Source of the DNA: a virus
Virus record (IMG/VR): IMGVR_UViG_3300022689_000130
Coordinates: 32,001-96,000 of that record
DNA: 64,000 nt
Reading direction: 5' to 3' (one strand)
Below the pieces are notes generated by a model that did no database searches, was not told where the DNA came from, and saw only the letters and a program-made list of their open reading frames with translations. Of this stretch, positions 15,452 to 43,305 are shown one piece after another. The stretch's first letter is position 1. Each line of letters opens with the position of its first letter. Made by a program: the position numbers and the translations under genes.

Positions 15452-15895
15452 CTATTTATTCCATTCGCGTATTTCAACATCAAAATTTTTCGCCTTGATG
15501 CGATCGACTACATGCGACAGGTATTTTTGTCCCATCACAGTTGAACTACTACGCTTAATTGCTTTATTTTGATTTCTAGCATAGTCAACCGCAGCTTGAT
15601 AGAGTTCACTAGCTAATCCGCGATTACGATAATCTTCGTCTACTATAACGTGTTTAAGCCAAAATTCTCTATCGTCATACGGATTCAGCTCTAATGCAAG
15701 ACTAGAAACAACACGCCGTCCATCAAAATGTACCAAATGTATTTCGTTATTCATATCTCCTGGATTCAGATATTGAAGACGATTGAATACATCCGGATTT
15801 GCATCTTCGTTACGATTGATGAACAAATGCAAATCAGCGCCTGCTAGCATGTTCAGACGCAAATCATCATTTTCAAACAGATGGCGATATCTCAT
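15452..15895 (-). CDS. GNAT acetyltransferase with N-terminal capsid-targeting-like tag
   Basis: Motif A VIVDEDYRNRGLASELY; starts MRYRHLFE. Confidence 0.85.
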   Translation of the reverse strand: MRYRHLFENDDLRLNMLAGADLHLFINRNEDANPDVFNRLQYLNPGDMNNEIHLVHFDGRRVVSSLALELNPYDDREFWLKHVIVDEDYRNRGLASELYQAAVDYARNQNKAIKRSSSTVMGQKYLSHVVDRIKAKNFDVEIREWNK

Positions 15896-16983
15896 TACAA
15901 GAATCCTACCGGCATAGGACGTCTTAGATCGGTATCGTCAAAGCTGTCTTTTAAATCATCAAATGCATCCGGATCATAACGTGCTACCTGCATAGCCATT
16001 CGGACTGCTAACAGAGTCGACATAACCAAATCGTCCGTTTCTCCTTCTTTAGCCTTATAGCTATTTCCTTGAGCGACGAATGTTTTAAGTTCACGGGTAA
16101 GATTTTTACTGCGAATTTTCATAGTTCCTTCTTCAACCCATCGTTTTAGTTTTGAGCAGGCAGCAAGCTTTGTTGAATGCGTTGTGTTAAATCCTTTGCG
16201 GAAGCGTCTTACATTACCACGACGTCTTGGTTCGCTAAGAAAGATACCTGGCAAGTTCTCTTCACCCATTTCATCAATAGAAACCAAAGCTGCTTCTCCC
16301 AATGTATTATTTTCTACCGAGTAATAAATTTCACTATTTGGTGCTGCCTCTTCGATTTCTTCCAGTATACTTTTCAAAATTTTAATTTGTCCTTGAATCG
16401 GCGTCTTGTTATGCTGCCACTCACCAATCTGACGCATACTGGGCAGAGCAAAAATTTCGATTGCGGCCGGGTCGCCTCCTGTTCCTAAACTAGGATCAAG
16501 TGCTACCAAATAAGTTTGGTTATCCTGTAGTGTATCATACCATCTAATCTGTCCGGAGCGCCGCATTGGTTCCATTCCCAAATCCATTTCAGAAAGAAAA
16601 ATTGGATTAATAAGCGTTTCATCGAATGCAATGAACTCACAGTTCGAAACAAGAATGTCGTTTCCATAAAATCGATTGCCGTCATCTACTCCAATTAAGT
16701 CGTATACCGGTTCAATTCTTCCTGTATAATCTGCAGATGTAACAGTAAGAGGTTCGCCTAATGCTGAAACTTGATCACCAACAACAAACGTGTCTGCAAA
16801 GCGTTTATTACCATCTACGTCGTAGATTCCATGATTGTCTGTGCATTCAATAAAAGTTCCATTATCAAATTCAATTCGATATATAGGCCGATCACCCATA
16901 GATGCAACACCTTTAAAGTGTTGATATCCATTAGGCGTTAATACTTTTAAATTTTTCTTGTTCTCTTTGAAAATCTGCGTCAT
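15895..16983 (-). CDS. terL: Terminase large subunit C-terminal half (nuclease), fused to split-intein IntC
   Basis: IntC of 114 aa ending ILVSN, then CEFIAFDETLI; ALDPSLGTGGD, VENN, DDLVMS RNase H-like motifs. Confidence 0.92.
   Translation of the reverse strand: MTQIFKENKKNLKVLTPNGYQHFKGVASMGDRPIYRIEFDNGTFIECTDNHGIYDVDGNKRFADTFVVGDQVSALGEPLTVTSADYTGRIEPVYDLIGVDDGNRFYGNDILVSNCEFIAFDETLINPIFLSEMDLGMEPMRRSGQIRWYDTLQDNQTYLVALDPSLGTGGDPAAIEIFALPSMRQIGEWQHNKTPIQGQIKILKSILEEIEEAAPNSEIYYSVENNTLGEAALVSIDEMGEENLPGIFLSEPRRRGNVRRFRKGFNTTHSTKLAACSKLKRWVEEGTMKIRSKNLTRELKTFVAQGNSYKAKEGETDDLVMSTLLAVRMAMQVARYDPDAFDDLKDSFDDTDLRRPMPVGFL
16642..16983 (-). mobile_element. Split intein C-fragment (114 aa)
   Basis: LKVLTPNGYQHFKGV, block B CTDNH, block F VYDL, terminal VSN followed by Cys+1. 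Confidence 0.9.
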
Positions 16984-18010
16984 CTTCTAGTATCCTATAC
17001 GTATATTTATTTTCAAAGAGCCATAATTGAAATCTATAACCTTGATCAATTACTGCATCGCGCTTGCGAAAATTATTGGTTAGTCTTGATTCATATCTCG
17101 GATCTAAGTTGCCATTCCACCACCATACACTTTTCACTTCAATGATTAAGTTTTCAGTTGGAATATAGATGTCTGGGTAATATTTCCATTTGTGTTGATT
17201 GACATTAATATATTCAAATAATGGTAAATTATATTTTGTTTTTCTTTGTCGATTATCAATAATCAATTCATCTTCATTATATTTTTTTAATAATTCATCT
17301 AATACTAGATTTTCATATCCACGAATACCAATTACTTTTCCAGATGGCAGTATGTAATCGCGTCCTTCATTATTTTTCTTTGCTGCTAATTTCTGAGTTT
17401 CTTTGTTAAATGTATTTTCAACTCCATATCGTTTAAAAGTTGTTTTGCGGCGCTTATCATTTATTTCATTCTGCTCTTGAATTGATTTGTTTCGATTCTT
17501 TTCTGCAGATTTTTCCCAACCTGCATAATATTCATTACCATATTTTGCTAATTTCGTTTGTCGCGACTTTTCTTTGTATTCACTTGACTGTGTCGCCCAG
17601 GGCACCCCATATTTTTCTTGAAAAGTTTTTGATGCTTTTTTCTTTTGCCGTTCAATTTGTTCTGGTGTTCGTTTAGCTGCGGCTTTGATCTTATTGATAC
17701 TGTCTTGTTGGCGTTGTTCGTCTGTCCAACCTTGCTTTGTAGCAGCTACAGAAGTGCCTACACATTTGGGATCACCACAGCTATTAGCATATGATTCACT
17801 TTTTTGATAAAATGTCAGAGGCTTCAAACATGAACACAGAGGAGTGATTTGTTTTTCATATATCTCATAATAGTCTTTATATGTGAGATCATGTTTGCGT
17901 AGATGTCTAGTAAATTGTCCGTTTGTTTTGCAGTATGATTGATTGTCAATTTTGCTTGTAATATAGATTGTTTGTTTCATAGTGCTTTCATTTAAATGTT
18001 TCTTCTCCAA
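16931..18010 (-). CDS. Free-standing PD-(D/E)XK homing endonuclease between the intein halves
   Basis: Zn-binding Cys clusters, repeated KYG/RYG motifs, YYPDIYIPTENLIIEVKS; own late promoter GATAAATA overlapping the IntN stop. Confidence 0.8.
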   Translation of the reverse strand: MEKKHLNESTMKQTIYITSKIDNQSYCKTNGQFTRHLRKHDLTYKDYYEIYEKQITPLCSCLKPLTFYQKSESYANSCGDPKCVGTSVAATKQGWTDEQRQQDSINKIKAAAKRTPEQIERQKKKASKTFQEKYGVPWATQSSEYKEKSRQTKLAKYGNEYYAGWEKSAEKNRNKSIQEQNEINDKRRKTTFKRYGVENTFNKETQKLAAKKNNEGRDYILPSGKVIGIRGYENLVLDELLKKYNEDELIIDNRQRKTKYNLPLFEYINVNQHKWKYYPDIYIPTENLIIEVKSVWWWNGNLDPRYESRLTNNFRKRDAVIDQGYRFQLWLFENKYTYRILEDDADFQREQEKFKSINA

Positions 18011-18916
18011 CTATTTATCTATTGTTTCAAACAAATCTCCAATTTCTATTTCATATTCTGTATTTCCGTCACTTATTTTCAAAAGTGTTGCGCTGTTACA
18101 ACACTCGTGCTCACGGCGAAATCTCTCGTCACCAATTTTAGCACGTTCGTTATCAGCCCATTCTTGGTCGCGCTCTGGATGTTGATCCCATTTGACCAAA
18201 TATGGACGAAATCCATTGATGCCTAGTTCTGTTTCATTTCCAAATTCATCAACATTCTTGTTAGCCTGCTTCCAAATCTGAGCAAATTGGTCGTCATCTT
18301 GGTTTGGGGTTGAAGTGATAATACATTTACCACCAGTTGATAATGTTGGTGAAATAGAAGTCCAAAATTCTTGTGCGACACGAGGCGGCACAAATGCAAA
18401 TTCGTCCAAGTAAACTAGTGAAAGCGACAAACCACGGCCAGTATTTTCGGTTGTGGCTTGTGCAACAATTTTGCTGCCGTTATCGAACTCGATGGAGCCT
18501 TTGTTATATGCTGTCACGCCCGCCCTGACATAGTCAGGACAACTCTCATACATATAACGCAGGCGTGTCATGATTTCCTGCGCGCCCTCACGCTTGTGTG
18601 CTGCTACAAGAATTGTGCTGTCTGGCTTGAACATCGCAAACCATAATAGATATGCTGCCGCGCAAGTTGACTTACCTGTCTGACGACTAAGCAAACTGAT
18701 TGAGTATCGATAATCGTTGTAGCTGTTGATCAAGCCTTCTTGATAGTCGAACAGCTTAAAAGGCATGCGACCTTTGGTAGGGTGCTGAATAAAACAGTGG
18801 TTACGGATAAAATGCAGTGGATTAATTGTACAGAGCGCTAACTCCTGCAACTCCGTCTGTGACATCTTTTCCGTTGTATACGGGCGTTTGACTAAGTCTG
18901 TGTTTACAGTATTCAC
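18011..18916 (-). CDS. terL: Terminase large subunit N-terminal half (ATPase), fused to split-intein IntN
   Basis: LFDYQ, SRQTGKST, YLDEFAF, ITSTPN; ends RFRREHE followed by IntN. Confidence 0.93.
   Translation of the reverse strand: MNTVNTDLVKRPYTTEKMSQTELQELALCTINPLHFIRNHCFIQHPTKGRMPFKLFDYQEGLINSYNDYRYSISLLSRQTGKSTCAAAYLLWFAMFKPDSTILVAAHKREGAQEIMTRLRYMYESCPDYVRAGVTAYNKGSIEFDNGSKIVAQATTENTGRGLSLSLVYLDEFAFVPPRVAQEFWTSISPTLSTGGKCIITSTPNQDDDQFAQIWKQANKNVDEFGNETELGINGFRPYLVKWDQHPERDQEWADNERAKIGDERFRREHECCNSATLLKISDGNTEYEIEIGDLFETIDK
18014..18103 (-). mobile_element. Split intein N-fragment (30 aa)
   Basis: CCNSATLLKISDGNTEYEIEIGDLFETIDK then stop; block A-like. Confidence 0.88.
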
Positions 18917-18919
18917 ACC

Positions 18920-19459
18920 TTACTCCTGAGGAAGGTGGACCCTCGCATAATAGTCTGCTTCTTCAAGAGCACGATAAAGATCTTCAAGTGCCTTGCGGAC
19001 TTCATGCAAGCCTGATGGATCTCCACCAATTGACTTGATTGACTTCTCCATAAACCCACCACGCTTGTAGGTATTTTCTAGACGCTCAACCAATTCCATG
19101 TGCTTACCCATATGCTGTTGAATGCCTTCGCCAGTAGCTTCATTTACACGGTTTTCTGGAAATGCCTCTGATACTTTGTGTTGTGGATCATGACGATCTT
19201 CCATACCTGGCTTAAATTCAAATTCATCACCATCGTCACCTACTGCATACCAAGCACCTTCAGTCCAATCACCACTGTCAGTTAGTGGTTTTCCTTCTTC
19301 CCATTCAAGATTCCAACCAAGGCCACGATAGGTAATACTGTCACCTTCAGTGTAAGTGCCATCTGTCCATTTATCATCAACCATTTGTGCTCGAGACATT
19401 TTTTCACAGATTGCTACTCGAGGCAATCCAGCTAGTTCACGTAGACGACGACTTGACAT
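18920..19459 (-). CDS. Putative internal head protein
   Basis: N-terminal LRELAGL; internal VSE/VNE sites. Confidence 0.7.
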   Translation of the reverse strand: MSSRRLRELAGLPRVAICEKMSRAQMVDDKWTDGTYTEGDSITYRGLGWNLEWEEGKPLTDSGDWTEGAWYAVGDDGDEFEFKPGMEDRHDPQHKVSEAFPENRVNEATGEGIQQHMGKHMELVERLENTYKRGGFMEKSIKSIGGDPSGLHEVRKALEDLYRALEEADYYARVHLPQE

Positions 19460-20154
19460 TATTTCTTCCCCTTGAAGTTTTTGTATTCACGGAGCATACT
19501 TTCTTCAGTGTGGTCTTCTTCGATTTTTACTGGCATCGCGTCCGCATCCAAATAACGACGAAGGCTGAGATCTACTGTTTCACCGTCTGGCTGCTCTTGA
19601 TAGTGTCCACGATCATCATATTGCTTATAGATCGAATTGGCCCACTCACGCATTGTCTGTGCTTCAGTATTGCTTGCTTCGTCTGCCTTTTCTTTGTCCT
19701 TAGCAGCTTTTTTCATGCTTTCTTTTTCATCACCATCGCCATCAATGTCAGCAAAATCCGGTTTGCTTTCTTCAAGACTTTGTTCGCTTATCTGCATGAT
19801 CTCTGGCTTTGCATTTGCAGTTGGATCTTTGAACCGACTGAAAATTGCACGAGCAATTGCGCGAGCTTCATTTTTTGAACTGGTAGTAACAATCAGCTCT
19901 TCATTAGCCCAACCAATATCATCATATTTAAATCCCTGGCTTGAAAGGTAATCATAAACCTTGTCACTCACGTCACGCAATGTGCGCATAGTGACTTTCC
20001 ATCCTTCGCTTTCAGTTAATGTGCGATTTGATTCCATAAGACTATTACGAATCTCATACATATTCTTTCGTGATTGGTCTGCAACATATTGCAGAGCAGG
20101 CGCATTACCTGCTAGCTGACGCAGTCTATCTAATGTATTCTTATCCATTGTCAT
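19459..20154 (-). CDS. Putative internal head protein with DxDxDG loop
   Basis: LRQLAG; LME/LTE/LEE sites; PDFADIDGDGDEKE. Confidence 0.7.
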   Translation of the reverse strand: MTMDKNTLDRLRQLAGNAPALQYVADQSRKNMYEIRNSLMESNRTLTESEGWKVTMRTLRDVSDKVYDYLSSQGFKYDDIGWANEELIVTTSSKNEARAIARAIFSRFKDPTANAKPEIMQISEQSLEESKPDFADIDGDGDEKESMKKAAKDKEKADEASNTEAQTMREWANSIYKQYDDRGHYQEQPDGETVDLSLRRYLDADAMPVKIEEDHTEESMLREYKNFKGKK

Positions 20155-20662
20155 CTACCTTTTTCAAGTGCTCTGCACGCTCTTTGGAAATTCCCTTAAG
20201 GAATGAATCCTTGAACTTTTCACCATAATAGTCATCAACGTTTGGCTGATCTACTTCACTATAGTCAGCATCTATTAAGCGCGGTTTGTAATTTTCTTCT
20301 GGCATCTCTTCAGCTTCAGCTTCATCCTCGATGTGTAGAGGCTCTAGCTTGTTGCGAACGATTAGAAAACGTTCGTGAATGCCCATTTTTTGTGATAGTT
20401 CTGCTAGCAACTGTAGTGGGCTGGCTGGCTGGCGTGTCTTGAAGTCAATCATGTAAACCTCTGCTGCACCAATGCTGCGGAAGTCACGTGGGTTGCGCTG
20501 GATGATTGTCTTTTTTGGCGTTGTGATATCAAAGCCGTCATATTTTCTTAGGTGCAACTCCATAGCGTCGAGCTGCTCATCAGTTGGCTCCATTGCAATC
20601 TTTACACGAAACTCGTGGATTGCTTCATTTTCTGCCAAATATTGCCCTAGATTCTTCGTCAT
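20141..20662 (-). CDS. Putative head-associated protein
   Basis: MTKNLGQYLAE resembles the T4 capsid-targeting sequence; late promoter CATAAATA upstream. Confidence 0.7.
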   Translation of the reverse strand: MTKNLGQYLAENEAIHEFRVKIAMEPTDEQLDAMELHLRKYDGFDITTPKKTIIQRNPRDFRSIGAAEVYMIDFKTRQPASPLQLLAELSQKMGIHERFLIVRNKLEPLHIEDEAEAEEMPEENYKPRLIDADYSEVDQPNVDDYYGEKFKDSFLKGISKERAEHLKKVDDNG

Positions 20663-20686
20663 AGGAGTCTCCTGCTTGCTATGTAT

Positions 20687-21211
20687 TTATGAGTTATTGT
20701 CTTTTTTTATGCCGGCAATAATGTCGTTGAGTACATCGTTACGTGTGGCAATAATACGGCCTTCTGTTTCTAACGTGTCTTCGTTTGGTTTTTTAAGGTG
20801 GCGGCGCTTGAGATATTCTAGCTTCTCTTGTTCGTGTTCAAGCTTTGCTTTTTGTATTTGCAGCTTGACCATTTCTAGCTTCTTTTGGGCTTTGTTGGTT
20901 TTAGCGTTAAGAGCATTACTCATCATACTGCTCGCTGCATTGGCGATGTCTGCTGCATGGCGATCTTCAACATTTTTGCTCAGTTCAAATAGATCATCAA
21001 ATGCCTCGATTGCTTTGTCAGCATAATTGTCATAATCAGAATCGATGCGGTCTAGGCCGCTCACTTCTGGTAGAGCAGCATCGATTTTGTCTGCTCGTTC
21101 CATAAGATGGCGCATGTCTTCTGCTGTATATTCTTCTACTTCATTTACCTCTTCGGCTTTTGGCAGATCCATTGAAGGTAAATTAAACGTCTCGCACAAT
21201 TTCTTCGTCAT
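20687..21211 (-). CDS. Probable terminase small subunit
   Basis: Helical 174 aa with coiled coil and C-terminal ATRNDVL; upstream of terL. Confidence 0.55.
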   Translation of the reverse strand: MTKKLCETFNLPSMDLPKAEEVNEVEEYTAEDMRHLMERADKIDAALPEVSGLDRIDSDYDNYADKAIEAFDDLFELSKNVEDRHAADIANAASSMMSNALNAKTNKAQKKLEMVKLQIQKAKLEHEQEKLEYLKRRHLKKPNEDTLETEGRIIATRNDVLNDIIAGIKKDNNS

Positions 21212-21315: not shown

Positions 21316-21350
21316 ATGCTTATTTATGACTTCAAGTTTAATAGTCATAG

Positions 21351-21731
21351 TCATTGTGGATCCCAAGAACGAGTGTTAATCACAACCAATTTGATACCAA
21401 ATGATTCAAAATTTAATCCATTGCCAAAGTCCAGTTCGTCCTCGTTGCGCGCTAACAACACACATACTGGTATTTTACCGCTTTCTTGCGCATAAACAAG
21501 GCTCTGTCCGATACACTCGTATGATTTCATTCGTGTAGCCCAGTCAAACTCGATAATTACAAATTCTGTTTGACAATCTGGACGCAAACCTGATGGTAAC
21601 TGTTCCTCATATCCATTGTATCGTTCAGCACAGATGCGATCTGAGTAATAGCTCTCACGTTCTGCTGCAAAACTTGCTACGGCTGCTAACATTCCCAATG
21701 CTAATGAAGCAAAAAAGATCACGGTTTTCAT
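21351..21731 (-). CDS. Signal-peptide protein with restriction-endonuclease-like motifs
   Basis: MKTVIFFASLALGMLAAVASFA-AE signal; RPDC...IIEFDW...IGQSLVYA. Confidence 0.7.
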   Translation of the reverse strand: MKTVIFFASLALGMLAAVASFAAERESYYSDRICAERYNGYEEQLPSGLRPDCQTEFVIIEFDWATRMKSYECIGQSLVYAQESGKIPVCVLLARNEDELDFGNGLNFESFGIKLVVINTRSWDPQ

Positions 21732-21952
21732 ATTCTACTCACCCTATAATTTCCTCGTATATCGCTATGCCAAAATTTACCTTTACTTGGCGCCTGTAAC
21801 CATTGGCGGAATATACCTTCTGGCAACCCAAGTATACGATAACGGCGGCCGTTATTCAGTGTCATAAATGTAACATTGTGGTCACGGTCTAAGTCTGCAA
21901 TCCAGCTAGACATGACTCCAACTTCGTCTAGCTGTAATTCGTCGATTTTCAT
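21728..21952 (-). CDS. KTSC-domain protein
   Basis: SSWIADLD...NGRRYRILGLPEGIFRQWLQAPSKGKFWHSDIRGNY. Confidence 0.85.
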   Translation of the reverse strand: MKIDELQLDEVGVMSSWIADLDRDHNVTFMTLNNGRRYRILGLPEGIFRQWLQAPSKGKFWHSDIRGNYRVSRI

Positions 21953-22416: not shown

Positions 22417-22427
22417 ACCGATATTTA

Positions 22428-23078
22428 TTAGTCACGCCAAGGAAGAGGTGGACCATTTGAAGCCCGCTCAATGCCATCTTCTGACGGTGCAGGAATTGCA
22501 TCTAGTCGAATGCTTTCAGGCTGGAATGTAATTGACCATTCAACAGGATTGCTGTCGCTGTAAGCTAAAGTATCTCCTTGAATACTGGTGATAATCGGAT
22601 TGATTAACTGTGTGCTACGAACCGTTCCGTTGTAGTAACCAGCTTGTTCAATAATGATCTGACGGAAGAAGTAACGTCCTGCATTAAGAGTAAACCCTAA
22701 ATCTGTTTCAAAGTTTATGTTTACAGTGCTGTCACCTTCTAATCCCCGCGGGTTCAATACACCACGGCCATCATTGTAGTAAAACGCCAGGTAATTTTGC
22801 ATCAAATTGAACCAAGCATTGTCGTGTGTATCAATGAATACAACTGTAACTGGTTCATAAATGAGCCGAGTTTGCACATAACGCTTTTTGTTATATTGGT
22901 TCATTATTGAACCTTCAACTGAAAAACTTGCGGTAGTTGCACTTCTCACAGTGTTAAAGTATTGCGGCTGTTCTTCTGTCGGATAGACACTCAATGTAAA
23001 ATTGAAGCGTTGTCTCGGGGCGAGGGCGCCGCCACCGCCCGATCCATATACTTCATGTCCAAAGTTTACAATCCCCAT
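22428..23078 (-). CDS. Tail-tube-fold protein (gp19 paralogue / tube initiator-like)
   Basis: NQYNKKRYVQTRLIYEPVTVVFID, LINPIITSIQGDTLAYS. Confidence 0.75.
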   Translation of the reverse strand: MGIVNFGHEVYGSGGGGALAPRQRFNFTLSVYPTEEQPQYFNTVRSATTASFSVEGSIMNQYNKKRYVQTRLIYEPVTVVFIDTHDNAWFNLMQNYLAFYYNDGRGVLNPRGLEGDSTVNINFETDLGFTLNAGRYFFRQIIIEQAGYYNGTVRSTQLINPIITSIQGDTLAYSDSNPVEWSITFQPESIRLDAIPAPSEDGIERASNGPPLPWRD

Positions 23079-23971: not shown

Positions 23972-24400
23972 CTATGGCTTGAGAAGATTTTGATTAGGGA
24001 CAGTGATCGGCGCTAATTGGTCGCCGTCGCTACGTTCGCCAAAAATCATAATTTGGCCTGGTCTTCCGTCCATAACACCCAGCCGTTGTTCTTCCAACTT
24101 GGCTGCTTCATCTCGATCATAGTCGTAAATATAGATACGGTTTCCTTTTTCACTCGTTGTCCAAATGATAATTTTGGACTCTGGTGTAATCACGTGCCAC
24201 ACATAGCCATGTTCTCCCTCTGGCCGAGATGGTATTGGCGCGCCTAGCTGTTCTACATATACGTTGAACGCGAACATTCCTATTAAAAGAAAACCCAACA
24301 GAGCTGATAGTTTGACAATGTAGTGTGCACGACTCGCATACATCATAAAAGCTATAGTAAGTGCTGTAATAACGCCTGTTAGAATTAATGCTGTTACCAT
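23972..24400 (-). CDS. Two-TM membrane protein, third gene of the stator-like module
   Basis: Two N-terminal hydrophobic helices followed by a soluble domain. Confidence 0.75.
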   Translation of the reverse strand: MVTALILTGVITALTIAFMMYASRAHYIVKLSALLGFLLIGMFAFNVYVEQLGAPIPSRPEGEHGYVWHVITPESKIIIWTTSEKGNRIYIYDYDRDEAAKLEEQRLGVMDGRPGQIMIFGERSDGDQLAPITVPNQNLLKP

Positions 24401-25017
24401 TCTTCTTCCTGTCCTGAAGGCAAGGTTGTTTCGTCAGCACCTAAAGTAACATGTGGTAATTGAATGTCGGTTCTCAAATCAACAACCTGTCCAGTTTCAT
24501 CTACAACGAATGAAACTACTGTAGTTTCTTGGTGTGGCTCTAAATTAACTTTACCAGAAAACAATGTGCTGTAAGGGTCTAGATGCGTGAGCAAGATCTC
24601 AACTTCTTCAGTTGGACCAAGTGAACTAAAATAGTGAACATTAACAAAATACTCGCCTGGTGGCAACACAGTGAAGCGAATATTTTCATAGTTGCGTTTA
24701 ATTGTCACAGGCTCATTGTTAATTTCGATAGTATCGTTCTGTGTGCCTCGATCGTCTCGTTCCAAAACAAAGTAGCTTCCATCTTTACGTCTAAAACCTA
24801 CCCAGTCGCCATCCTTACCACGAACCCAGAGATCAATATCCACACGGCTTTCTGAATCCCAAACCATTTCCACCATAAACTTGATTGGTGGATCTATTTT
24901 TCCACCCTGAGTAGGTGGATTAACCATAAGAAATGCAATGATGAACATTGTTGTGATGCCTAATAACAAATTAAACACAAGGTCCAGAAATGCTAATCTC
25001 ATCGGGCCACTGGTCAT
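24394..25017 (-). CDS. MotB/ExbD-like single-TM protein with YfaP-like beta domain
   Basis: TM AFLDLVFNLLLG with the conserved Asp; W..DIDLWV...LERDDRG...NYENI...PPGEYFVNVHYF. Confidence 0.75.
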   Translation of the reverse strand: MTSGPMRLAFLDLVFNLLLGITTMFIIAFLMVNPPTQGGKIDPPIKFMVEMVWDSESRVDIDLWVRGKDGDWVGFRRKDGSYFVLERDDRGTQNDTIEINNEPVTIKRNYENIRFTVLPPGEYFVNVHYFSSLGPTEEVEILLTHLDPYSTLFSGKVNLEPHQETTVVSFVVDETGQVVDLRTDIQLPHVTLGADETTLPSGQEEEW

Positions 25018-25466
25018 TCTTCAAGCACCACCAATTGAAAACCTATAATTGCTGAAGTCACGATACCACTAAGAGAGGTGAGCAATGCAGCCGCCATTCC
25101 TCCCGCCATGTCTGTAAGTGCTTGAGTCATGACGGTTGTATCTGTTGGATCTAACACAACCCCTGGCCCAAACACACTCCAAAGAACTATCATGAATCCG
25201 ATTAACGTTCCAACAAGACCAATCGCCACGGAAGTTTCTCCCATATAACGAACCATTTGGTGTCTGTTCTCTTCATACTGCCCTTGCCAATGGTACTTGA
25301 ACATCATCAGATGAGATGCTACAAGAATAGCGAGGTTAGCAAAGGTAAGATAGGTCTTGTCGTTGGCTAAAATAAAATCAAATAACCCAAAGTAGACTTG
25401 TCCGGTTATTAGTGCGAAGACAATCATTACCAATATTGTCCAAAACTTCCAAAACTTCATATCCAT
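25014..25466 (-). CDS. MotA/TolQ/ExbB proton-channel family protein
   Basis: Four TMs; IGLVGTLIGF and MAGGMAAALLTSLSG motifs. Confidence 0.85.
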   Translation of the reverse strand: MDMKFWKFWTILVMIVFALITGQVYFGLFDFILANDKTYLTFANLAILVASHLMMFKYHWQGQYEENRHQMVRYMGETSVAIGLVGTLIGFMIVLWSVFGPGVVLDPTDTTVMTQALTDMAGGMAAALLTSLSGIVTSAIIGFQLVVLEE

Positions 25467-25477
25467 ATGACTGCCCT

Positions 25478-27112
25478 TTAATAATGTATGTGGTTATTTA
25501 TCCATACATATTTGGCATTTCCACAGTCCCAGATTCGATTCCATCCTTCTTGGTCTCGTAGTTGAAATTCAGTGAGAATTGAATCAGCTGGCTTTTTCAA
25601 TGAGAACCTATGTCTTCTTTTTGTCGCATCAATATACCAATAGTTTATTGGAGATACTGATTTAAATTTAAATCCAAGAGACTCATAAACTTTTCCGTTG
25701 TTCCATCTCAAATCAGAAAATGTAATTACATTAGATGGATTAAAATCTTTAACAAATCTCTTGAACAATTTTGATGCGCCGCCAACCACCACGACATCAG
25801 TCTGTGAACAAAATCTAGAAAGTTCCCATCCCTTTTGTTTTTTGCTTGCATCTCCATTACGAAAAGTCATGACCGAAACAATCCTGCCTTGATCGAATAA
25901 TCCGTAATTCACACTGGCGTTATGATAACCTTGAATATGAAACTGATCACAGAAACTCCTAGCCTGTGCTGCACTGATTGGTTTACATATGGTTTTTCTG
26001 GCATAGATTTTGTCGCCAATTAGTCCTAATTTATGTAATAATCTAGCCTTTACAATATCACGTTTGTGAAGCCATTCATCTTCAAATATAGTAATCAAGT
26101 CGTATCCGTTTTCTTTGCATTTGGCAAGCTTTTCACTGTGATATTCTCGCGCAACTCTTTTGTCATTATGCCAATATAGTCCACAATACTCGATTGCTAA
26201 CTTACGATCTTTGATTACGATATCAAGTTCTTGAGGTGCAATCAAGGTTCGGTTGTTTCTATCCACATCAACATAATGTTCAAGAAAATCTGCAATTTGG
26301 TTTTCAGCAATGCTACCTTTGTTATTAACGCCCAGACATCTGCTACAAATTTCACCAAATGTACGCAACCTGTATTTGATTGTTTCGGTAGTTAGTATTT
26401 CCTCTTTATGGCATTCCTGGCATCGAATTTCAATACGGCAATTTGGATTTTTATATGCAGCTTGTAAATCCAGGCTTGGAGTATGTATCTTCACAATGTC
26501 AGCATGTGAGTTTACCAGAATCGAAAATGTATTGCATTGCCGTTGTCGTTGTTTTTCTCTCCACTCGTCGCTTTCAAAATAATTGTCAACTCCGTAATTT
26601 TTCCGCAATGTTGCTTTGCATTTCTCCCTATGATTTTCAATTTGACTTGGGTTTGAAACTCCATACCGATTTTGTAATGTTTCCCTCCCTTTTGTATTCA
26701 ACACTAGTGCCCGTTCACGAGCTGATTCAATGGCGGTCGGACTGACTTTTTGCCCATATTTTTTGATATTTGTAGCAATACGTTTTTTTTGAGTTTCCTC
26801 CATTTTAGCTGGATTATCAACTCCATAAAGTTCAATCATTGATTTGCGCATCTTATCAATTGCTGATTCGCCTATTTGTTTCTTTAATTTTTCTCGGCAT
26901 TTTCTTGAACAAGTTGTTTTCCCTCGATCAGGTAAATTGCCACATACAGCACATTTAGGAATTGGATCATCGCTGAGTATAAGATAACATTGATATGAAA
27001 AGTCTTTGTCAGGAAACTGTAATTCAAGCCATTCAATCATTTCTTTAGTTAGATGTTTGCGCCTGCTGTTTCGAGGGCAAGATTGTAGTATTTGTCGTAT
27101 TTGTTGTTTCAT
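25478..27112 (-). CDS. Hef-like homing endonuclease (PD-(D/E)XK) with C-terminal GNAT/Mom-like domain
   Basis: YGVDN repeats; ELDIV...LAIEYCGLYWH; IFEDEW; YARK, WELSRFC, VGGASKL, FSDLRW, IWDCG. Confidence 0.85.
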   Translation of the reverse strand: MKQQIRQILQSCPRNSRRKHLTKEMIEWLELQFPDKDFSYQCYLILSDDPIPKCAVCGNLPDRGKTTCSRKCREKLKKQIGESAIDKMRKSMIELYGVDNPAKMEETQKKRIATNIKKYGQKVSPTAIESARERALVLNTKGRETLQNRYGVSNPSQIENHREKCKATLRKNYGVDNYFESDEWREKQRQRQCNTFSILVNSHADIVKIHTPSLDLQAAYKNPNCRIEIRCQECHKEEILTTETIKYRLRTFGEICSRCLGVNNKGSIAENQIADFLEHYVDVDRNNRTLIAPQELDIVIKDRKLAIEYCGLYWHNDKRVAREYHSEKLAKCKENGYDLITIFEDEWLHKRDIVKARLLHKLGLIGDKIYARKTICKPISAAQARSFCDQFHIQGYHNASVNYGLFDQGRIVSVMTFRNGDASKKQKGWELSRFCSQTDVVVVGGASKLFKRFVKDFNPSNVITFSDLRWNNGKVYESLGFKFKSVSPINYWYIDATKRRHRFSLKKPADSILTEFQLRDQEGWNRIWDCGNAKYVWINNHIHY

Positions 27113-32517: not shown

Positions 32518-32969
32518 TAATGTTTCCTTGCACAAACAGGACCAAGGCCGGTCTCGATGCTCTCAGGCACCGTCAGCGTCCGGCCGCAAGCGCCACACTT
32601 TCCGCTGTGATAAAATTCCACGGTGTCATGCAGGACACCGCGATCGAGATTGTGGAGCAGCCAGTTGAGCCCTTTGAAGCTCACTGCATCAGGACGACCT
32701 TTGCGTCCAGCGTTGAGGCGCGATTTGTTGTGGCTGTTCATGTGGCCCAGGTAACCATATGCGGTCTCGTTGCAAGGTCCTTGCAGCACCTTAACAAACA
32801 GAATAGGCGCGTCAGTGCGTCCTTCACGCGGCTTGCTATTGCTGACTTTGTAGGTGAAGCGGGTTCCAGTGCGCTTGTTCTGGATGGTGAACAGGGCGCG
32901 ACCAGCAAAGATGAACCGCCGGATGGCTGCGGGGTCGGTCATGCGTCCTTCAAAAAGATCTTCTTTCAT
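32517..32969 (-). CDS. DUF6011-like zinc-ribbon protein
   Basis: CGACGRTLTVPESIETGLGPVC. Confidence 0.8.
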   Translation of the reverse strand: MKEDLFEGRMTDPAAIRRFIFAGRALFTIQNKRTGTRFTYKVSNSKPREGRTDAPILFVKVLQGPCNETAYGYLGHMNSHNKSRLNAGRKGRPDAVSFKGLNWLLHNLDRGVLHDTVEFYHSGKCGACGRTLTVPESIETGLGPVCARKH

Positions 32970-33434: not shown

Positions 33435-34160
33435 CTATCTGTTCGGTATTTTTGTTGGATCTAAGACTCTTCGGTCAGAAGCAGATGTTGATGGTTTGAC
33501 CCATCCTAAGGATTGCATTTTTTCCCATGCTGCTTTTGCTTCAGGCTGTTGCAGCCCGCTGGCATGAAGGTAAAGTCCTTGCTTTTGTAACCACTTTGCG
33601 GCTTTTTGATACATCGCTAATGCAATATGTTGGCGTTGAAAACCATCATAGACACGAATATAATCAACGAGCGGTTTGTCGACATGGTATTTCTTGAATT
33701 TTTCAAATTCTGTTGCGTGATGCTTGTTTAACCTTGGACTGTCAATCATCGACAGGTAATGATCTAATGTCTTTGTGTCCATATTTTTGATGTCATCTTG
33801 ATTTGACCATCCCAAGTCCCAGTACTTTGCCGGCGGGCGATGTCGGCTAAGGACTGCATATAGGAGCAATTTCTTCTTTACATCATCAGGCATATCTCGC
33901 CAATTTGTTCTGGCAAATTCATTCGGAATATACTGCTTTAACAGATAATTAACAAGTGATGGATATTTGGTATCAAATCGTTCTTTTGGAATGTATGATA
34001 TTTTAAGATATCCGGCCTCTTCGCCATTGACTTTAGCGACTAGTTTGTGAATTATCCATTCATTATTGATTTTTCTATCAGCCTCTGAATCCTGATGCAA
34101 CTCAAACTCAATTTCGTTGCCTGATTTAGTTTCATATTCTAGTATTTCAGATACTCGCAT
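33435..34160 (-). CDS. GNAT-like acetyltransferase with capsid-targeting-like tag
   Basis: VDYIRVYDGFQRQHIALAMY...ASGLQQPEAKAAW; starts MRVSEILE. Confidence 0.7.
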   Translation of the reverse strand: MRVSEILEYETKSGNEIEFELHQDSEADRKINNEWIIHKLVAKVNGEEAGYLKISYIPKERFDTKYPSLVNYLLKQYIPNEFARTNWRDMPDDVKKKLLLYAVLSRHRPPAKYWDLGWSNQDDIKNMDTKTLDHYLSMIDSPRLNKHHATEFEKFKKYHVDKPLVDYIRVYDGFQRQHIALAMYQKAAKWLQKQGLYLHASGLQQPEAKAAWEKMQSLGWVKPSTSASDRRVLDPTKIPNR

Positions 34161-34926: not shown

Positions 34927-34953
34927 GATATTTATCGTGACACGATAAATATC
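34927..34953. promoter_or_regulatory. Back-to-back late promoters forming a 13-bp palindrome
   Basis: GATATTTATCGTG-A-CACGATAAATATC between divergent genes. Confidence 0.8.
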
Positions 34954-34967: not shown

Positions 34968-35585
34968 ATGCGTTATTACAATCTGCTTGAAGGCAGAAAT
35001 TCACGATGTATTGTAATTGATGTCCAGCCTGAATACACTGGAGTTAACGATGGGTCTGAATTACCTTGGATTGATGACATGATGGCATGGCTAAACCGTC
35101 AAGGTCCTGTTTTGATGTTTGTTAATGCTGAAGATACAGGAATAACAATGGATACAATTCCTGACATTCAAGAATATTGGAATGACAGCGGGTATGACCC
35201 AAGTAAATGGAATCAAACCACTATCGTTGACAAAGGATATGGTTATATGCGTGCCTGGATGGATCAAGGCGTGAGTGATGCAGCTATCATCAAAACCATT
35301 CGCGAACTGTATAACCAAAAGAAAACAGATACGAGAGAGCTATTCAGCGGTGATGATAGTGAAACTTATCAGGACGAGATGTCTAACTTTTTGGGTTATG
35401 AGTGGCATGAATGGATGGCTGATGACAGTCTAATAGTTGAATGGACTAGCATCGGTCAGCTAAAACAGTTTAACGGAGCATATTTGATGGGAGGCGGTCG
35501 TGAAGAATGCCTCAGAGAGGTAACATTATTGATGAATGCATTCAACATCAAATACAAACTTGTTCAGGAATTTATCTATGGATAA
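34968..35585 (+). CDS. Isochorismatase/cysteine-hydrolase-like protein with capsid-targeting-like tag
   Basis: IVIDVQ, DKGY, GGGREECLREV (Asp-Lys-Cys triad); starts MRYYNLLE. Confidence 0.7.
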   Translation: MRYYNLLEGRNSRCIVIDVQPEYTGVNDGSELPWIDDMMAWLNRQGPVLMFVNAEDTGITMDTIPDIQEYWNDSGYDPSKWNQTTIVDKGYGYMRAWMDQGVSDAAIIKTIRELYNQKKTDTRELFSGDDSETYQDEMSNFLGYEWHEWMADDSLIVEWTSIGQLKQFNGAYLMGGGREECLREVTLLMNAFNIKYKLVQEFIYG

Positions 35586-38029: not shown

Positions 38030-38041
38030 ATAAATAAACGT

Positions 38042-39121: not shown

Positions 39122-39150
39122 GGACCGGCTCCATTGGAGCCGGTCCTTTT
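39122..39150 (+). terminator. Rho-independent terminator
   Basis: GGACCGGCTCC-ATT-GGAGCCGGTCC-TTTT; 20 nt from the capsid gene stop on the opposite strand. Confidence 0.85.
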
Positions 39151-39169
39151 GTTTTTGCTAGTCCTAAAC

Positions 39170-40333
39170 TTAGGTGAAGCTTAGGTTTCCGCTGGTGACG
39201 TCGATGCGGTTGAGGTAGTCTGCAGCGTTACCAAGTGATGAAGCCTGGTTGCTGAGTTCTACATAACCATAGCGTGTCATGAAGGACACGACTGGTTCGA
39301 ACGTCTGAGGGTCAAGCACAGTGCCTGAGCTCATTAGAGGAATGTACGGGCAATAGAACGCCGCAGCATCGGTCTCGTTTGAGCCTTTGTAGCCGATAAG
39401 GATGTTATCGTCAGTTGCATACTGGTTCACATATACACGCATTGATCCGTTAAGTGTGCCGACAAACTTGGTGTTTGTTGGTGCTTCAAATGGACCTTCA
39501 GTTGTGCGAGCGAACGCAGAAGTTGTAGCTGCCTGGAGAACAGTTAGAACAGTTGGTGAAATAACCATCCAGTTACCAGCGCCACGACGTGTGCGAGCCG
39601 CAATATCGTTTGCTGCTTTGTTGATGAGCACTGCTAGTGCAGCATGTTCATCACCAACGAAAGTTGCTGTGCCGCTAACTGCATTCTGGTCGTATGTACC
39701 AGTTGCAGGGCCAGCAAGGCTACGTAGAGATGCTAGGATCTCCTGGTCGATTTCTGCGGTAATTTCCTGCGCTAGTGCAGCCATGATTTCCGCTTCAACA
39801 TCTAGACCATGCATTGCTTGTGCATCCTGCGCTGCCTCGAAAGTCCAACGTGCGCTGAGCTTACGAGTTTTTGCTTCAACAGTCTGTCTAAGGACTTGGA
39901 TGTTGAGTCGACGCCCGGCCTGACCTTCAAGCACAGAAGTTGCTTCTGCACGGTCAGTTGTTGCGTTACCAGAATAACCGTTAGCAATCTGGAATGGGCT
40001 TAGTGCTTCGTCACCAGCTACTGCTGAGTCGAATGTTTCTGCGTAGCGAACACGAAGAGTGTGAATTTGACCAACTGGGCCGGTCATTGGTTGCACACCA
40101 ACTAGTTCGTTTGCAATTACGGTTGGCATAACACGGCGGATAACTGGTAGGATCACTTTGTTAAGTGTCGCAATGTTACCTGCTGATGTTGCGCCGACAG
40201 TTGCAGATTCACGTAGCATGTGATTTTTCGTGTTTTCTAACACGCTTTCCATAACTGCCTTTTTATTACCGGCCAGACCGTCAACAAGTGCGTTTTTGGT
40301 TGCTGACCAGTTTTCGAATAGAACGTCTGCCAT
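39170..40333 (-). CDS. gp23: Major capsid protein (gp23-like)
   Basis: VIRRVMPTVIANELVGVQPMTGPVGQI, RKLSARWTFEAAQD, FYCPYIPL, MTRYG. Confidence 0.97.
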   Translation of the reverse strand: MADVLFENWSATKNALVDGLAGNKKAVMESVLENTKNHMLRESATVGATSAGNIATLNKVILPVIRRVMPTVIANELVGVQPMTGPVGQIHTLRVRYAETFDSAVAGDEALSPFQIANGYSGNATTDRAEATSVLEGQAGRRLNIQVLRQTVEAKTRKLSARWTFEAAQDAQAMHGLDVEAEIMAALAQEITAEIDQEILASLRSLAGPATGTYDQNAVSGTATFVGDEHAALAVLINKAANDIAARTRRGAGNWMVISPTVLTVLQAATTSAFARTTEGPFEAPTNTKFVGTLNGSMRVYVNQYATDDNILIGYKGSNETDAAAFYCPYIPLMSSGTVLDPQTFEPVVSFMTRYGYVELSNQASSLGNAADYLNRIDVTSGNLSFT

Positions 40334-40345
40334 TTGTTTTCTCCT

Positions 40346-41470
40346 TTAGCTTAGTCCTGCTAATTTCTTGAGTTCAATGATATCAGCTGAGCCACCATCG
40401 TCTTGATGGTTGCTCTTGACCTTGTCACCGTTTACTTCGCGGATTGGCTTGCGCTGGCCACGGCTCTCAGTGAGTTTAGCCTTTTTTGCTTGTGTCTTAA
40501 CTGTAGAGTCTTCGGAAAGAACACTTGGCAGATACTTCTTGTATGCAGTCTTCAACTGTGAAGTTTTGACTGATTCAAGTAGTGTAGCCATTAGTTCTTT
40601 CTGACCCTTGTTTAGTGGACCAAGCATTTCGCTCATGATTTGCTTACGCTCGCTCATATCTTCTGCGATGCGGGCGGTGCGTTTAGCTTCTGTGAGCTGT
40701 TGATCCTTAGCTTTCATTACTTCGTTAGCCTCTGCAATGTTCTGCTTAAGTTTCATAATTTCTTTTGCAAGTTTTGCTACCTGTGTGCTTTCGCTCAAGG
40801 TGCTTGTCATATACTCGCTTGCGAATGTTTCGAAGATTTTACGCCCAAACTCGTTTTCCTTAGCTGTCTGGATGTCTTCGCGCAGAGATACAAGCTCTTT
40901 ACGCAAGACACTTTCAACAACGGTTTCGATTTTCGCTGCGCTTTTCTTAATGAAGTTTGCTTTTGCTTCTTCAATAACCTTCTTACCTTCGCGAACCATT
41001 TTGACTTTCTGCTCTGCGAGAGCCCGCTTGTCATCATGGAATTCGTTAAGTTCTTTGGTTAGCTGTTTGAGAACGAACTCTTCTAGCTTGCCAAAGTTTG
41101 CCTTTTGTTTTTGACGATCCTCACGTAATTCAGTGACTTCCTTTGCTAGGACTTCCTGAACGAAGCGTTCAAGCATTTTAGCATGTTCTTTCATCGCTTT
41201 CTTATAACGAACGCGATCTTCTGCTACCTTGGATTTGTCTGTTGCAAACTCTTCCAATTCAGTCTTGATTGCTTCTTTCAGCATTGCGTCCATTGCTTCA
41301 ACAATCTGCGACTTGTCATTTTCATAACGAGATGCAAACTCTTCACGCAACTCTGCAGTGACTTCTTCACGCTGCTCAGCAATTCTCTGTTCGAATGCTT
41401 CAGAGAGTTCAGTCTTGATATCTTCAGTTAGGATATCACTGTTGAGGATTTCTTTAATTGACTTAGGCAT
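40346..41470 (-). CDS. gp22: Prohead core scaffold protein (gp22-like)
   Basis: Coiled coil, FGRKIFETF, position between protease and capsid; C-terminal LKKLAGL. Confidence 0.88.
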   Translation of the reverse strand: MPKSIKEILNSDILTEDIKTELSEAFEQRIAEQREEVTAELREEFASRYENDKSQIVEAMDAMLKEAIKTELEEFATDKSKVAEDRVRYKKAMKEHAKMLERFVQEVLAKEVTELREDRQKQKANFGKLEEFVLKQLTKELNEFHDDKRALAEQKVKMVREGKKVIEEAKANFIKKSAAKIETVVESVLRKELVSLREDIQTAKENEFGRKIFETFASEYMTSTLSESTQVAKLAKEIMKLKQNIAEANEVMKAKDQQLTEAKRTARIAEDMSERKQIMSEMLGPLNKGQKELMATLLESVKTSQLKTAYKKYLPSVLSEDSTVKTQAKKAKLTESRGQRKPIREVNGDKVKSNHQDDGGSADIIELKKLAGLS

Positions 41471-41472
41471 AG

Positions 41473-42108
41473 TTATTTTCTCCCTAGGTCTTGGATAAAT
41501 CGAACCATCTCTTCTTTGAGATACTTCTGTGCTTTTGGATCATGTGTAACGTTTGATGCTACGTCCCAAATGCTGCCTTGACGGCGGTAATTCATGATTT
41601 GCTCATAAATTGGATCCGGATATGCATCCGGTGCACTGGGGTTAGCTACAATGTCAACTGTAATAATTTCAAATTCTGATACATTACCAGAACCGTCAAC
41701 ATTACCGCTACCGCGTGAACTGACCCCTAGTTTTACACCGCTTTCCAACAGTGTTTTACAGATGTTGCCCATCGGAGTGGGCAACATTTTTAGTTTACCA
41801 ATGCCGTCTGAGCCTTTCATGTTCATATCGACAATCATGTGACTCACACGGTCAAGGTTGATGTTAAGATCATCTGGGTGATCTGCTTCACCAAGGACTG
41901 TATATCCACCAGCGATCTTTTCTTTGAGCGTCTTAACGGCTTTGGAGATTTCATCGACTGGGTATATTCTTTCATTTTGATTGCGTTTATCACCTTGGAT
42001 GAAGATACCTTGCATGAACAGATCCTTACCACCAGAACCATTGTCATGAGTCTCAGTGGTAATAGATGCTGCACTCGGTGCAATAACTTCTCTAAGTGGT
42101 GTAAACAT
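41473..42108 (-). CDS. gp21: Prohead protease (gp21-like)
   Basis: GIFIQ..RNQNERIY, GEADHP, VSH, GVSSRG, DIVANPSAPDA. Confidence 0.95.
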   Translation of the reverse strand: MFTPLREVIAPSAASITTETHDNGSGGKDLFMQGIFIQGDKRNQNERIYPVDEISKAVKTLKEKIAGGYTVLGEADHPDDLNINLDRVSHMIVDMNMKGSDGIGKLKMLPTPMGNICKTLLESGVKLGVSSRGSGNVDGSGNVSEFEIITVDIVANPSAPDAYPDPIYEQIMNYRRQGSIWDVASNVTHDPKAQKYLKEEMVRFIQDLGRK

Positions 42109-42122
42109 CAGTTATCTTGCCC

Positions 42123-42962
42123 TTAGTTTGACTTCTTGTGGAAGACTGAATTAGCTTTTTCGCTTGAGTTGGACGGTGCTGCCACTTTCTTGTCCATCTT
42201 GCCTTTTTGCTCTTGTGGACCGGTTACGCTCATTTTCTTTGCTGAGTCGCCTTTGCCGCCTTTTTCATCTCCGCCGAACTTGTTAACTGGCTTAGCGTGT
42301 CCGCCGCTCATGTCGCTTGCGTTTTGTGGGATCGGTGAAGCTTTGCCGTCTTCGTCGCCCGCCATAGTTACATTACCGTGCTTGTGCAGTTTTGCGGCTT
42401 CTTCAAGATCGTCGTCTTCAAGATCGTCGTCTTCATCTGACACTTCAAATTCATCGGCAAATTCATCAGCCATGTCATCTTCTGTTTCATCAGCATCCAT
42501 CAAATCAGCAAATGCTGCGCGAAGTTCGTCGATTGCGTCAAGAACGTTGAGTTCATCAGAGCTGTCGTCGCTCATGTCATCATCCATGTCAGCATCCATG
42601 TCAGCATCCATGTCAGCATCCATGTCGGCATCCATGTCAGCATCCATGTCCATTTCGCTGGACAGATCGTCAATTGCTTCATCATTATCGTCATCTTCAC
42701 CGAAATATTCTTCGGCTTCGATCTCGTCTTCTAATGAATCAAGATCATGTTCAAAGTCGCCGCTTTCGTCACTGTCGTCGAAGTCTTCATCTTCGTCGAG
42801 TTCTAATTCATCTTCAAATGAATCGTCCTCTTCTGCAAGATCAGCATAAATTTCACGCGCCGTCTCGATAAAATGTTCGTGCAGCATTTCATTGGCCAAC
42901 TCGTTTTCACCGTTGACCATGAATTCTAACACTTTTTCCAGTTTGGTTTTTGTCATTATCAC
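42123..42962 (-). CDS. Acidic prohead core protein
   Basis: Extremely D/E-rich; lies between portal and protease. Confidence 0.75.
   Translation of the reverse strand: MIMTKTKLEKVLEFMVNGENELANEMLHEHFIETAREIYADLAEEDDSFEDELELDEDEDFDDSDESGDFEHDLDSLEDEIEAEEYFGEDDDNDEAIDDLSSEMDMDADMDADMDADMDADMDADMDDDMSDDSSDELNVLDAIDELRAAFADLMDADETEDDMADEFADEFEVSDEDDDLEDDDLEEAAKLHKHGNVTMAGDEDGKASPIPQNASDMSGGHAKPVNKFGGDEKGGKGDSAKKMSVTGPQEQKGKMDKKVAAPSNSSEKANSVFHKKSN
42581..42650. repeat. 12-bp tandem repeat (CATCCATGTCAG, about 6 copies) encoding MDAD
   Basis: Directly visible in the sequence. Confidence 0.9.
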
Positions 42963-43098
42963 ACTCCTAAGCCTCTCTTGAAGCTTTATTTTGTATTACT
43001 TCAAATAGTATTTACAGAACAAAGCGTTTTACTTGCTAAAAAGGCAAGATTTCGGGTAAAAAGTGTGTTTTAATTTAGTGAGTTACCTGACTAAGTAA

Positions 43099-43305
43099 TC
43101 ACTCTTCGGAATTTGCACTCCCGTAGATATAGGCCACATCATCAATTCTCTGCTTTTGCTCCAGTTCTTCAATGTTTCGAGTCTTGCGCAGCTTTTGCAA
43201 GTGTCTTAGTGTAATACGAGGCCGGCGTTTGTGGTCGATGTTAACCACGGTGTATTTGTCGTCCATCTCATCATAATATTCTCTTAAAAATTCTTTACTT
43301 CTCAT
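43099..43305 (-). CDS. Small head-module protein
   Basis: MRSKEFLRE...RRPRITLRHLQKLRK; coupled to the portal gene. Confidence 0.8.
   Translation of the reverse strand: MRSKEFLREYYDEMDDKYTVVNIDHKRRPRITLRHLQKLRKTRNIEELEQKQRIDDVAYIYGSANSEE

Follow-up and report, generated by a model that had tools for sequence, protein, structure and literature searches.

Why should unrelated genes in the late region of a phage begin with much the same short peptide? The question arises from IMG/VR virus record IMGVR_UViG_3300022689_000130, of which we analysed bases 32001-96000 of a single 144,664-bp contig (G+C 43%); this 64,000-nucleotide stretch is referred to here as the window, and positions are those of the window unless stated otherwise. 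An initial annotation had picked out six open reading frames (ORFs), among them two acetyltransferases of the GNAT family, a cysteine hydrolase and a KTSC-domain protein, that open with a tag ending in hydrophobic-x-Glu, and had read them as a packaged effector set, delivered with the DNA. The six ORFs and their N-termini are present at the reported positions, and each peptide opens at the first possible start, an ATG. We think it probable that the peptides are capsid-targeting leaders of the kind used by bacteriophage T4, a reading to which we were led by the enrichment of the tag, its conservation in protein families that also have untagged members, its occurrence in gene arrays, the presence of a matching protease together with a site-rich scaffold, and an excess of tagged proteins in the virions of jumbo phage PA5oct. 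That the peptides mark proteins for the prohead and for cutting by a gp21-type protease is thus supported, indirectly, whereas an effector role is lost for two of the six proteins.

The tag had been described loosely, as a hydrophobic-x-Glu motif within the first 12 or so residues. Such a rule discriminates poorly, being matched by 37 of the 179 genes called on the contig (the base for all our counts), which is a mild enrichment over the 24.3 +/- 4.5 expected from composition-preserving shuffles, and we dropped it for a tighter pattern. Nor is one tag common to all six ORFs, as five fit M-[RK]-x-x-x-[LIF]-x(1-3)-E whereas the sixth, which begins MTKNLGQYLAE, falls outside it. The tight pattern, ^M[RK]..[EDNQHKRST][LIFMV].{1,3}E, is matched by 8 of the 179 genes when 0.6 are expected, an approximately 13-fold enrichment whose p-value is indicative only, because the pattern was written after homologues had been seen, and which matters less than the independent tests described below; in any of 1000 controls (shuffled or internal-window) the maximum was 4-5 matches. 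The matching genes are the five reported ORFs, with tags that end LFE, LLE, ILE, LRE and LDE, and three genes upstream of the window (genome positions 3226-27966). The products of these three are 112, 94 and 367 aa long, the longest containing DUF6267 (1.8e-28), and a 461-aa protein also encoded upstream of the window begins MRAQEFLHLDE. A Pfam search with nine upstream contig genes returned one DUF6267 match and otherwise almost nothing.

Comparison with homologues indicates that the tag is a unit distinct from the domain that follows it. In both GNAT families the untagged members, when aligned with the tagged ones, start exactly where the conserved domain starts. The family of the second GNAT-like protein (GNAT2) has the tag as an N-terminal add-on that is missing in about ten relatives, one of them bacterial (chromosomal), and for the first GNAT (GNAT1) we found 220 remote homologues, a subset of them tagged and the others without a tag. 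About 20 of 22 homologues of the KTSC protein keep a leader of the form M[RK]..[ED][IL]...[IL]xE ahead of the start of the conserved domain. The hydrolase has 673 metagenomic homologues, and roughly 115 of the best 120 carry the tag, with the conserved first strand directly after it. Consistent with this, the AlphaFold2 (AF2) models of GNAT2 and the hydrolase place the tag outside the folded domain, residues 1-3 and 1-7, respectively, being modelled without confidence. The Arg and Leu codons vary from tag to tag, and the DNA upstream is unrelated both in the window and in the arrays of related phages; conservation is therefore at the level of the peptide and does not stem from a mobile DNA cassette. 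In particular, a recombination cassette that includes the promoter, as has been proposed for the ip loci of T-even phages, is ruled out by the lack of conserved upstream DNA in both settings.

The same tag recurs at scale in related phages. We collected 54 IMG/VR loci, each a homologue of the hydrolase gene plus as much as 10 kb on either side, and found that these homologues sit in tightly packed, co-oriented arrays of up to 10-11 genes per locus with near-identical leaders. The loci contain 100 tagged ORFs, 98 on the strand of the array and 2 on the opposite strand, although the two strands have similar numbers of ORFs. Once the first 12 residues are removed, the 100 ORFs fall into 47 unrelated sequence clusters. 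Their consensus is M, [RK], A, x, [ED], [FLI], [IL], x, E (MRAxEF[IL]xE), P3 being Leu or Ile in 58 of 81, and it shifts slightly between phages, as it should if every phage has a receptor with which the leader co-evolves. In all but 2 of the 54 loci the hydrolase gene lies away from neck genes, and because it lacks synteny with neck genes elsewhere we do not regard its product as a conserved neck or morphogenesis protein. A Pfam search with ten large tagged ORFs of these loci returned two Amidoligase_2 domains, another enzyme class found behind the tag (L024:13497-15401, 2.7e-11; L023:3620-5809, 2e-5), and otherwise almost nothing.

A targeting peptide that ends in a cleavage site calls for a protease, and the contig encodes one within a head module arranged as in T4: portal, a 68-aa gene, an acidic 277-aa gene, S77 prohead protease, 374-aa scaffold and 387-aa capsid protein, all on the minus strand. 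The prohead maturation protease (41473-42108; PF03420 8e-22, phrog_207 9e-57) is of the T4 gp21 type, with which it shares 35% identity (E 1e-20) and with which its His (…DHP) and Ser (GVSSRG) motifs align. The scaffold (40346-41470; phrog_10922 5e-86), in the position of gp22, has 24 [LI]-x-E sites in its 374 aa and ends …KKLAGLS. The major capsid protein (39170-40333; phrog_138 1e-101) is 29% identical to T4 gp23 (2e-43) and has a likely maturation site, …MLRE/S (the slash marks the predicted cut), at residue 42; this segment aligns with the N-terminus of T4 gp24 (MAKINELLRE, then S), which we take to be cleaved after the Glu at residue 10. The portal protein (43302-45020; phrog_213 3e-113) is gp20-like. 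The acidic protein (42123-42956; 277 aa, isoelectric point (pI) 4.05) occupies the position of T4 gp68, with which it has that position, and no sequence similarity, in common. The capsid protein shares 68-70% identity with its counterparts in PA5oct, GAP32, CBB and Vibrio phage 2.275.O, all jumbo phages, and, given this identity and the T4-type head module, we place the phage among the distant relatives of T4, in the PA5oct/RaK2 lineage. It is probably uncultured, and the contig is possibly incomplete.

The tagged genes of the window lie, as the initial annotation had it, among head and neck genes: all the candidates fall inside a late structural block of approximately 12.9-47.3 kb that also holds a split large terminase, a gp4-like head-closure gene, tail tube and sheath genes, neck genes and a sheath stabiliser. 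The GNAT1 gene starts over the stop of the C-terminal exon of the large terminase (TAATG), the KTSC gene overlaps the stop of the gp4-like head-closure gene (ATGA), the 68-aa gene at 43099-43305 overlaps that of the portal gene (ATGA), and the GNAT2 gene begins 2 nt after a neck (Ad2-like) gene. The hydrolase gene has its own late-promoter-like ATAAATA (34945-34951, plus strand), which lies between it and a neck gene and is divergent from that of the neck gene (34929-34935, minus strand), and further ATAAATA motifs on the minus strand, at 17004-17010, 20684-20690, 22422-22428 and 45088-45094, each head a unit with a tagged gene. The contig has 39 copies of ATAAATA, and 27 genes have one within 80 nt upstream. 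If these motifs mark late units, the tag is enriched in late over early genes, as the initial annotation had anticipated: ATAAATA-headed units hold all 8 tagged genes and 45 of the 171 others (26%; Fisher p = 4e-5). A gp55-like late sigma factor (53071-53964, minus strand; phrog_12791 1e-82, phrog_234 1e-20) supports the presence of T4-style late promoters.

The published annotation of PA5oct, which flags 93 of 461 proteins as virion proteins by electrospray ionization tandem mass spectrometry (ESI-MS/MS; PMC7318152), offered a surrogate virion proteome. Scanning the whole PA5oct record with the tight pattern at annotated starts, we found ten tagged proteins, 6 of which are in virions compared with 93 of 461 (20%) overall (p = 0.006). 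The six are gp150, gp175, gp238, the adjacent gp380 and gp381, and the beta subunit of ribonucleotide reductase (RNR); among the four undetected is the 64-aa gp382 beside gp380 and gp381. The genes for gp380-gp382 are adjacent and co-oriented (MK797984.1 260677-262300), with tags MRLNEINLIE, MKILEFNLTE and MKLSEICILE. The PA5oct counterpart of the scaffold, gp153, is undetected in virions, as expected for a degraded core, and gp151, the counterpart of the acidic protein at 42123-42956, is detected. Neither the PA5oct paper (PMC7318152) nor a 2026 jumbo-phage review mentions a targeting tag.

Four of the tagged proteins in the window are candidates for delivered cargo. GNAT1 (15452-15895, minus strand; 147 aa), which carries the class-1 tag MRYRHLFE, is firmly assigned, scoring 39.3 bits against PF00583 (9e-10; cut-off 20.7) and 38.1 bits against PF14542 (1.8e-9; cut-off 30). 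GNAT2 (33435-34160, minus strand; 241 aa, tag MRVSEILE) is a GNAT at the level of its family, in which 23 of 35 members match PF00583, whereas its own score of 17.5 is below the cut-off of 20.7 (E 0.005). Its AF2 model (predicted local distance difference test score (pLDDT) 92.5) gives Foldseek matches that are nearly all GNATs, albeit weak ones (E >= 0.01), and the call of GNAT-like draws on this model and on the family alignment. Motif A of GNAT2 reads R-Q-H-I-A, with His in place of Gly in the canonical acetyl-CoA motif R/Q-x-x-G-x-G/A; because of this His its activity is uncertain. The KTSC-domain protein (21728-21952, minus strand; 74 aa, tag MKIDELQLDE) is again a firm assignment (PF13619 1e-8, 35.2 bits against a cut-off of 25), and 20 of its 22 homologues are annotated with PF13619; that it binds nucleic acid, as had been suggested, was a guess, the KTSC domain having no established function.

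The isochorismatase/nicotinamidase-like protein (34968-35585, plus strand; 205 aa, tag MRYYNLLE) had been called a cysteine hydrolase, and the name survives at the level of the fold. In sequence, where the family would be PF00857, the protein has no Pfam or PDB match, and the hidden Markov model of its family likewise found no match among PDB sequences. When its AF2 model (pLDDT 87.6) was compared with known structures using the exhaustive structural aligner VIA, the top 28 rows were all isochorismatase, nicotinamidase or cysteine-hydrolase structures, ahead of any other fold (Z 10.2-7.8, 118-133 residues aligned, root-mean-square deviation 3.0-4.2). A Foldseek comparison of the model with the PDB gave nothing significant, and the isochorismatase assignment thus comes from the exhaustive aligner only. 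D18, K89 and C181 are invariant in 42 homologues and follow the order of the Asp-Lys-Cys triad of the isochorismatase-like family, an agreement in sequence order. We consider "cysteine hydrolase" a reasonable fold-level reading of the model and not a demonstrated membership. In two homologues of 303-309 aa (P0009 and P0013) the tag stays N-terminal and an extra stretch of about 100 residues precedes the hydrolase domain, a layout that suggests fusion of cargo behind a fixed leader. A tblastn search with GNAT1 and the hydrolase against 50,697 isolate phage records returned no match, and both cargo genes are absent from cultured relatives; GNAT1 also had no match in our IMG/VR scan.

The two remaining proteins on the initial list are not effectors. 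The 68-aa product of 43099-43305 (minus strand; tag MRSKEFLRE; phrog_13986 4e-12) is a conserved small basic head protein in the position of T4 gp67; it shows no BLAST similarity to gp67, and position and tag are all the two have in common. Its PA5oct homologue is gp150, which begins MKINDIITEG and is annotated "structural protein, ESI-MS/MS". The 173-aa product of 20141-20662 (minus strand; phrog_14802 6e-24), the one that begins MTKNLGQYLAE, is a conserved virion structural protein with ATAAATA 28 nt upstream of its gene. Its homologue CBB_210 starts MNKLQKILTE and is annotated "structural protein". The tag of this family is not class-1; an [IL]-x-E near residue 10 is kept.

The T4 capsid-targeting sequence and the polymorphic ip loci of T-even phages were reportedly described by Mullaney & Black 1996 and Repoila et al. 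1994. In the T4 record, internal proteins (IPs) IPII and IPIII begin MKTYQEFIAE and IPI has a related, longer leader, while Alt begins MELITELFDE, gp24 MAKINELLRE, gp22 MLKEQLIAE and gp21 MNEPQLLIE. There, as here, a leader of about ten residues that ends in [LI]-x-E, a gp21 site, is the sole part common to unrelated proteins; the genes are accessory and late, the latter probably so in the present phage; and the portal, protease, scaffold and capsid genes are homologous. The consensus of the arrays, MRAxEF[IL]xE, is nearly that of MKTYQEFIAE. In T4, replacement of the leader Glu by Asp prevents cleavage and leaves targeting intact. The present tags differ in being 1-2 residues shorter and in preferring Arg to Lys, and they belong to a very distant clade with PA5oct/RaK2-type head genes. 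Whereas the T4 IPs are small basic GmrSD inhibitors, the cargo here consists of enzyme-sized folded domains (GNAT, cysteine-hydrolase fold, KTSC), and in contrast to the ip loci the tagged genes are scattered among structural genes, with relatives holding arrays of up to 11, and are known from sequence. For IPIII of T4, which like IPI and IPII has a capsid-targeting sequence (reviewed in PMC9026906, PMC3012670 and PMC12373910), the first ten residues are enough for loading; targeting depends on residues 4 and 7 and cutting on residues 8 and 10, and foreign enzymes fused to the sequence are packaged in T4 heads and delivered to the host (PMC9026906).

Our favoured explanation is thus that the enzymes are probably shipped ready-made inside the virus particle. 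Late in infection the tagged proteins would be made alongside the head, neck and packaging proteins. The leader of 8-10 residues (Met, a basic residue, an acidic or polar one, two hydrophobics and a final Glu) would bind them to the scaffolding core of the prohead, after which the gp21-type protease would cut behind the Glu of [LIF]-x-E, as it is expected to do on the scaffold and the capsid protein, leaving the mature enzyme free within the head. The cargo encoded in the window would comprise a small GNAT, a second GNAT-like protein, an isochorismatase-fold hydrolase with Asp-Lys-Cys and a KTSC domain, and the same leader would serve the conserved small basic head protein beside the portal gene. 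Packaging is well, if indirectly, supported; binding to the core, cleavage and copy number we infer. Passage through the tail along with the DNA, activity in the next host and a role in anti-defence or takeover would follow by analogy with the T4 IPs and Alt.

Several observations weigh against this explanation. The hydrolase and GNAT1, with pI values of 4.3 and 6.3, are not basic as the T4 IPs are, GNAT2 may be inactive given the His for Gly in its motif A, and the tags of this genome are more varied than those of the metagenomic arrays. The tight pattern was composed with data and homologues already in view, and the identity of ATAAATA as a late promoter is drawn from its position and from T4. 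The virion data are those of PA5oct, a surrogate for the phage in hand, and the test on them covers ten genes; RNR beta, counted among the six positives, probably matches by chance, and the PA5oct mass spectrometry list includes clear non-structural enzymes (RNR and thymidylate synthase).

If the leader does target the prohead and is clipped, the proteins could still be head-internal components that serve assembly or the particle and not delivered effectors; they might, for instance, condense DNA, modify the core or capsid, or act on polyamines. The product of 43099-43305 and its PA5oct homologue are indeed conserved core-module proteins, T4 gp67 and gp68 are core proteins and not effectors (PMC9026906), the phAPEC6 paper reports bubblegrams indicative of inner-body-like material in 121Q, of the same clade (PMC7247149), and ejection with the DNA is argued by analogy. 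This fits the 68-aa protein. The other cargo, however, is variable and non-syntenic, with 47 families and a hydrolase gene that is seldom found beside neck genes, which is typical of arms-race accessory genes and not of assembly parts, and in T4 the cargo of the targeting sequence, foreign enzymes included, does reach the host (PMC9026906). Such turnover among the cargo families speaks for enzyme genes that are accessory and driven by conflict, and we consider a purely head-internal role unlikely.

Alternatively, the leader might be no capsid address and be recognised by different phage machinery, for example a modifying enzyme (radical-SAM or other), an unfoldase of the Clp type or a secretion pathway. 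We hold this to be highly improbable: no more than 2 of the 54 tag-array loci contain homologues of the genes in the radical-SAM island of the contig, tagged virion proteins are found in PA5oct, which has no such island, a signal peptide would have to be longer and less polar than the tag, and the tag fits both the T4 targeting sequence and the cutting rule of gp21. That the resemblance is due to chance, or to a constraint on translation initiation (A-rich codons after the ATG), has in its favour that about 24 of 179 genes would match the loose motif by chance and that many bacterial and phage genes encode Lys or Arg as the second residue. It is contradicted by the enrichment of the tight pattern, by retention of the tag over hundreds of homologues with varying codons, by its confinement to late units and by its near-absence from the opposite strand of the related loci, and we give it hardly any credence.

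Taken as capsid-targeting leaders, the tags can be set beside other systems that load proteins into shells. The ADP-ribosyltransferase Alt of T4, which is packaged and injected and whose termini are cleaved by gp21, is a precedent for enzymatic cargo, as a head-carried enzyme with a short Glu-ending leader; the enzyme classes here are different, and Alt, at about 70 kDa, undergoes C-terminal cleavage as well. We found no ADP-ribosyltransferase in this phage. The jumbo phages phiKZ, 201phi2-1 and SPN3US likewise load many proteins into the head, among them inner-body and ejection proteins and enzymes (virion RNA polymerase), and remove propeptides after Glu by means of a distant gp21 homologue (gp175, gp245), but their propeptides are long and not a common short tag, the motif is S/A/G-x-E, and the lineage is that of Chimalliviridae and relatives. 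Encapsulin cargo-loading peptides also send diverse enzymes into an HK97-fold shell by way of a short terminal peptide; unlike the tags, they are usually C-terminal, are retained and bind the shell protein directly, with no DNA and no delivery. The Dar proteins of phage P1 are accessory anti-defence head proteins, injected with the DNA, whose incorporation follows a hierarchy of protein-protein dependencies and not a common leader.

T4-type targeting sequences being already known, what is notable is the enzymatic cargo and the scale of the system in uncultured relatives. To our knowledge, the internal proteins of T-even phages so far are all restriction inhibitors. If the tag works as in T4, it permits a listing, from sequence alone, of what a mostly uncultured clade of giant phages brings into the cell ahead of gene expression, a set that by far exceeds the few internal proteins of T-even phages and is richer in enzymes. 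It would name the two GNATs and the Asp-Lys-Cys hydrolase as candidates for immediate-early modification of the host or its defences, and it would make available natural tags by which foreign proteins could be brought into the heads of jumbo phages. A bolder and rather doubtful extension is that T4-related jumbo phages of the PA5oct/RaK2 lineage, together with their many uncultured relatives, use the capsid as an extensive, modular vehicle, in which one short N-terminal address serves dozens of exchangeable enzymes (acetyltransferases, cysteine hydrolases and amidoligases as well as many unknown folds) fired in before gene expression to disarm defence or signalling; were it true, the classes of the GNATs and of the nicotinamidase-like hydrolase would here have their first virion-delivered enzyme effectors. 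The idea is directly testable because PA5oct is cultured and has both a virion proteome and tagged genes, and its gp380-gp382 array is suited to such experiments.

We note several further features of the window. A 150-aa basic protein (32517-32969, minus strand; phrog_20259) has a borderline tag, MKEDLFEG, and a C-terminal DUF6011 zinc-ribbon-like motif (7.7e-15), and may be further cargo. The ORFs at 18920-19459 and 19459-20154 (minus strand), just upstream of the terminase, have a different leader with R-L-R-[EQ]-L-A-G, which resembles the end of the scaffold (…KKLAGLS, 40346-40375) and that of the PA5oct scaffold (…RRLAGIK) and may, by mimicry of the scaffold tail, act as a second signal for targeting; T4 gp68 ends …KALGLS. 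The large terminase (15895-18916, minus strand) is in two parts, ATPase (18011-18916) and nuclease (15895-16983), separated by a 359-aa ORF (16931-18010) with DUF7487 (3.5e-31) that is probably a homing-endonuclease or intron-type insertion. A large homing/HNH endonuclease gene (25478-27040, minus strand; phrog_3339, 2e-110) interrupts the tail-tube/tail-sheath gene pair, and between it and the tail tube lies a three-gene membrane module (23972-25466, minus strand), one protein of which matches MotA/ExbB right at the Pfam cut-off (22.9 bits), an odd location for an ion-channel-like protein.

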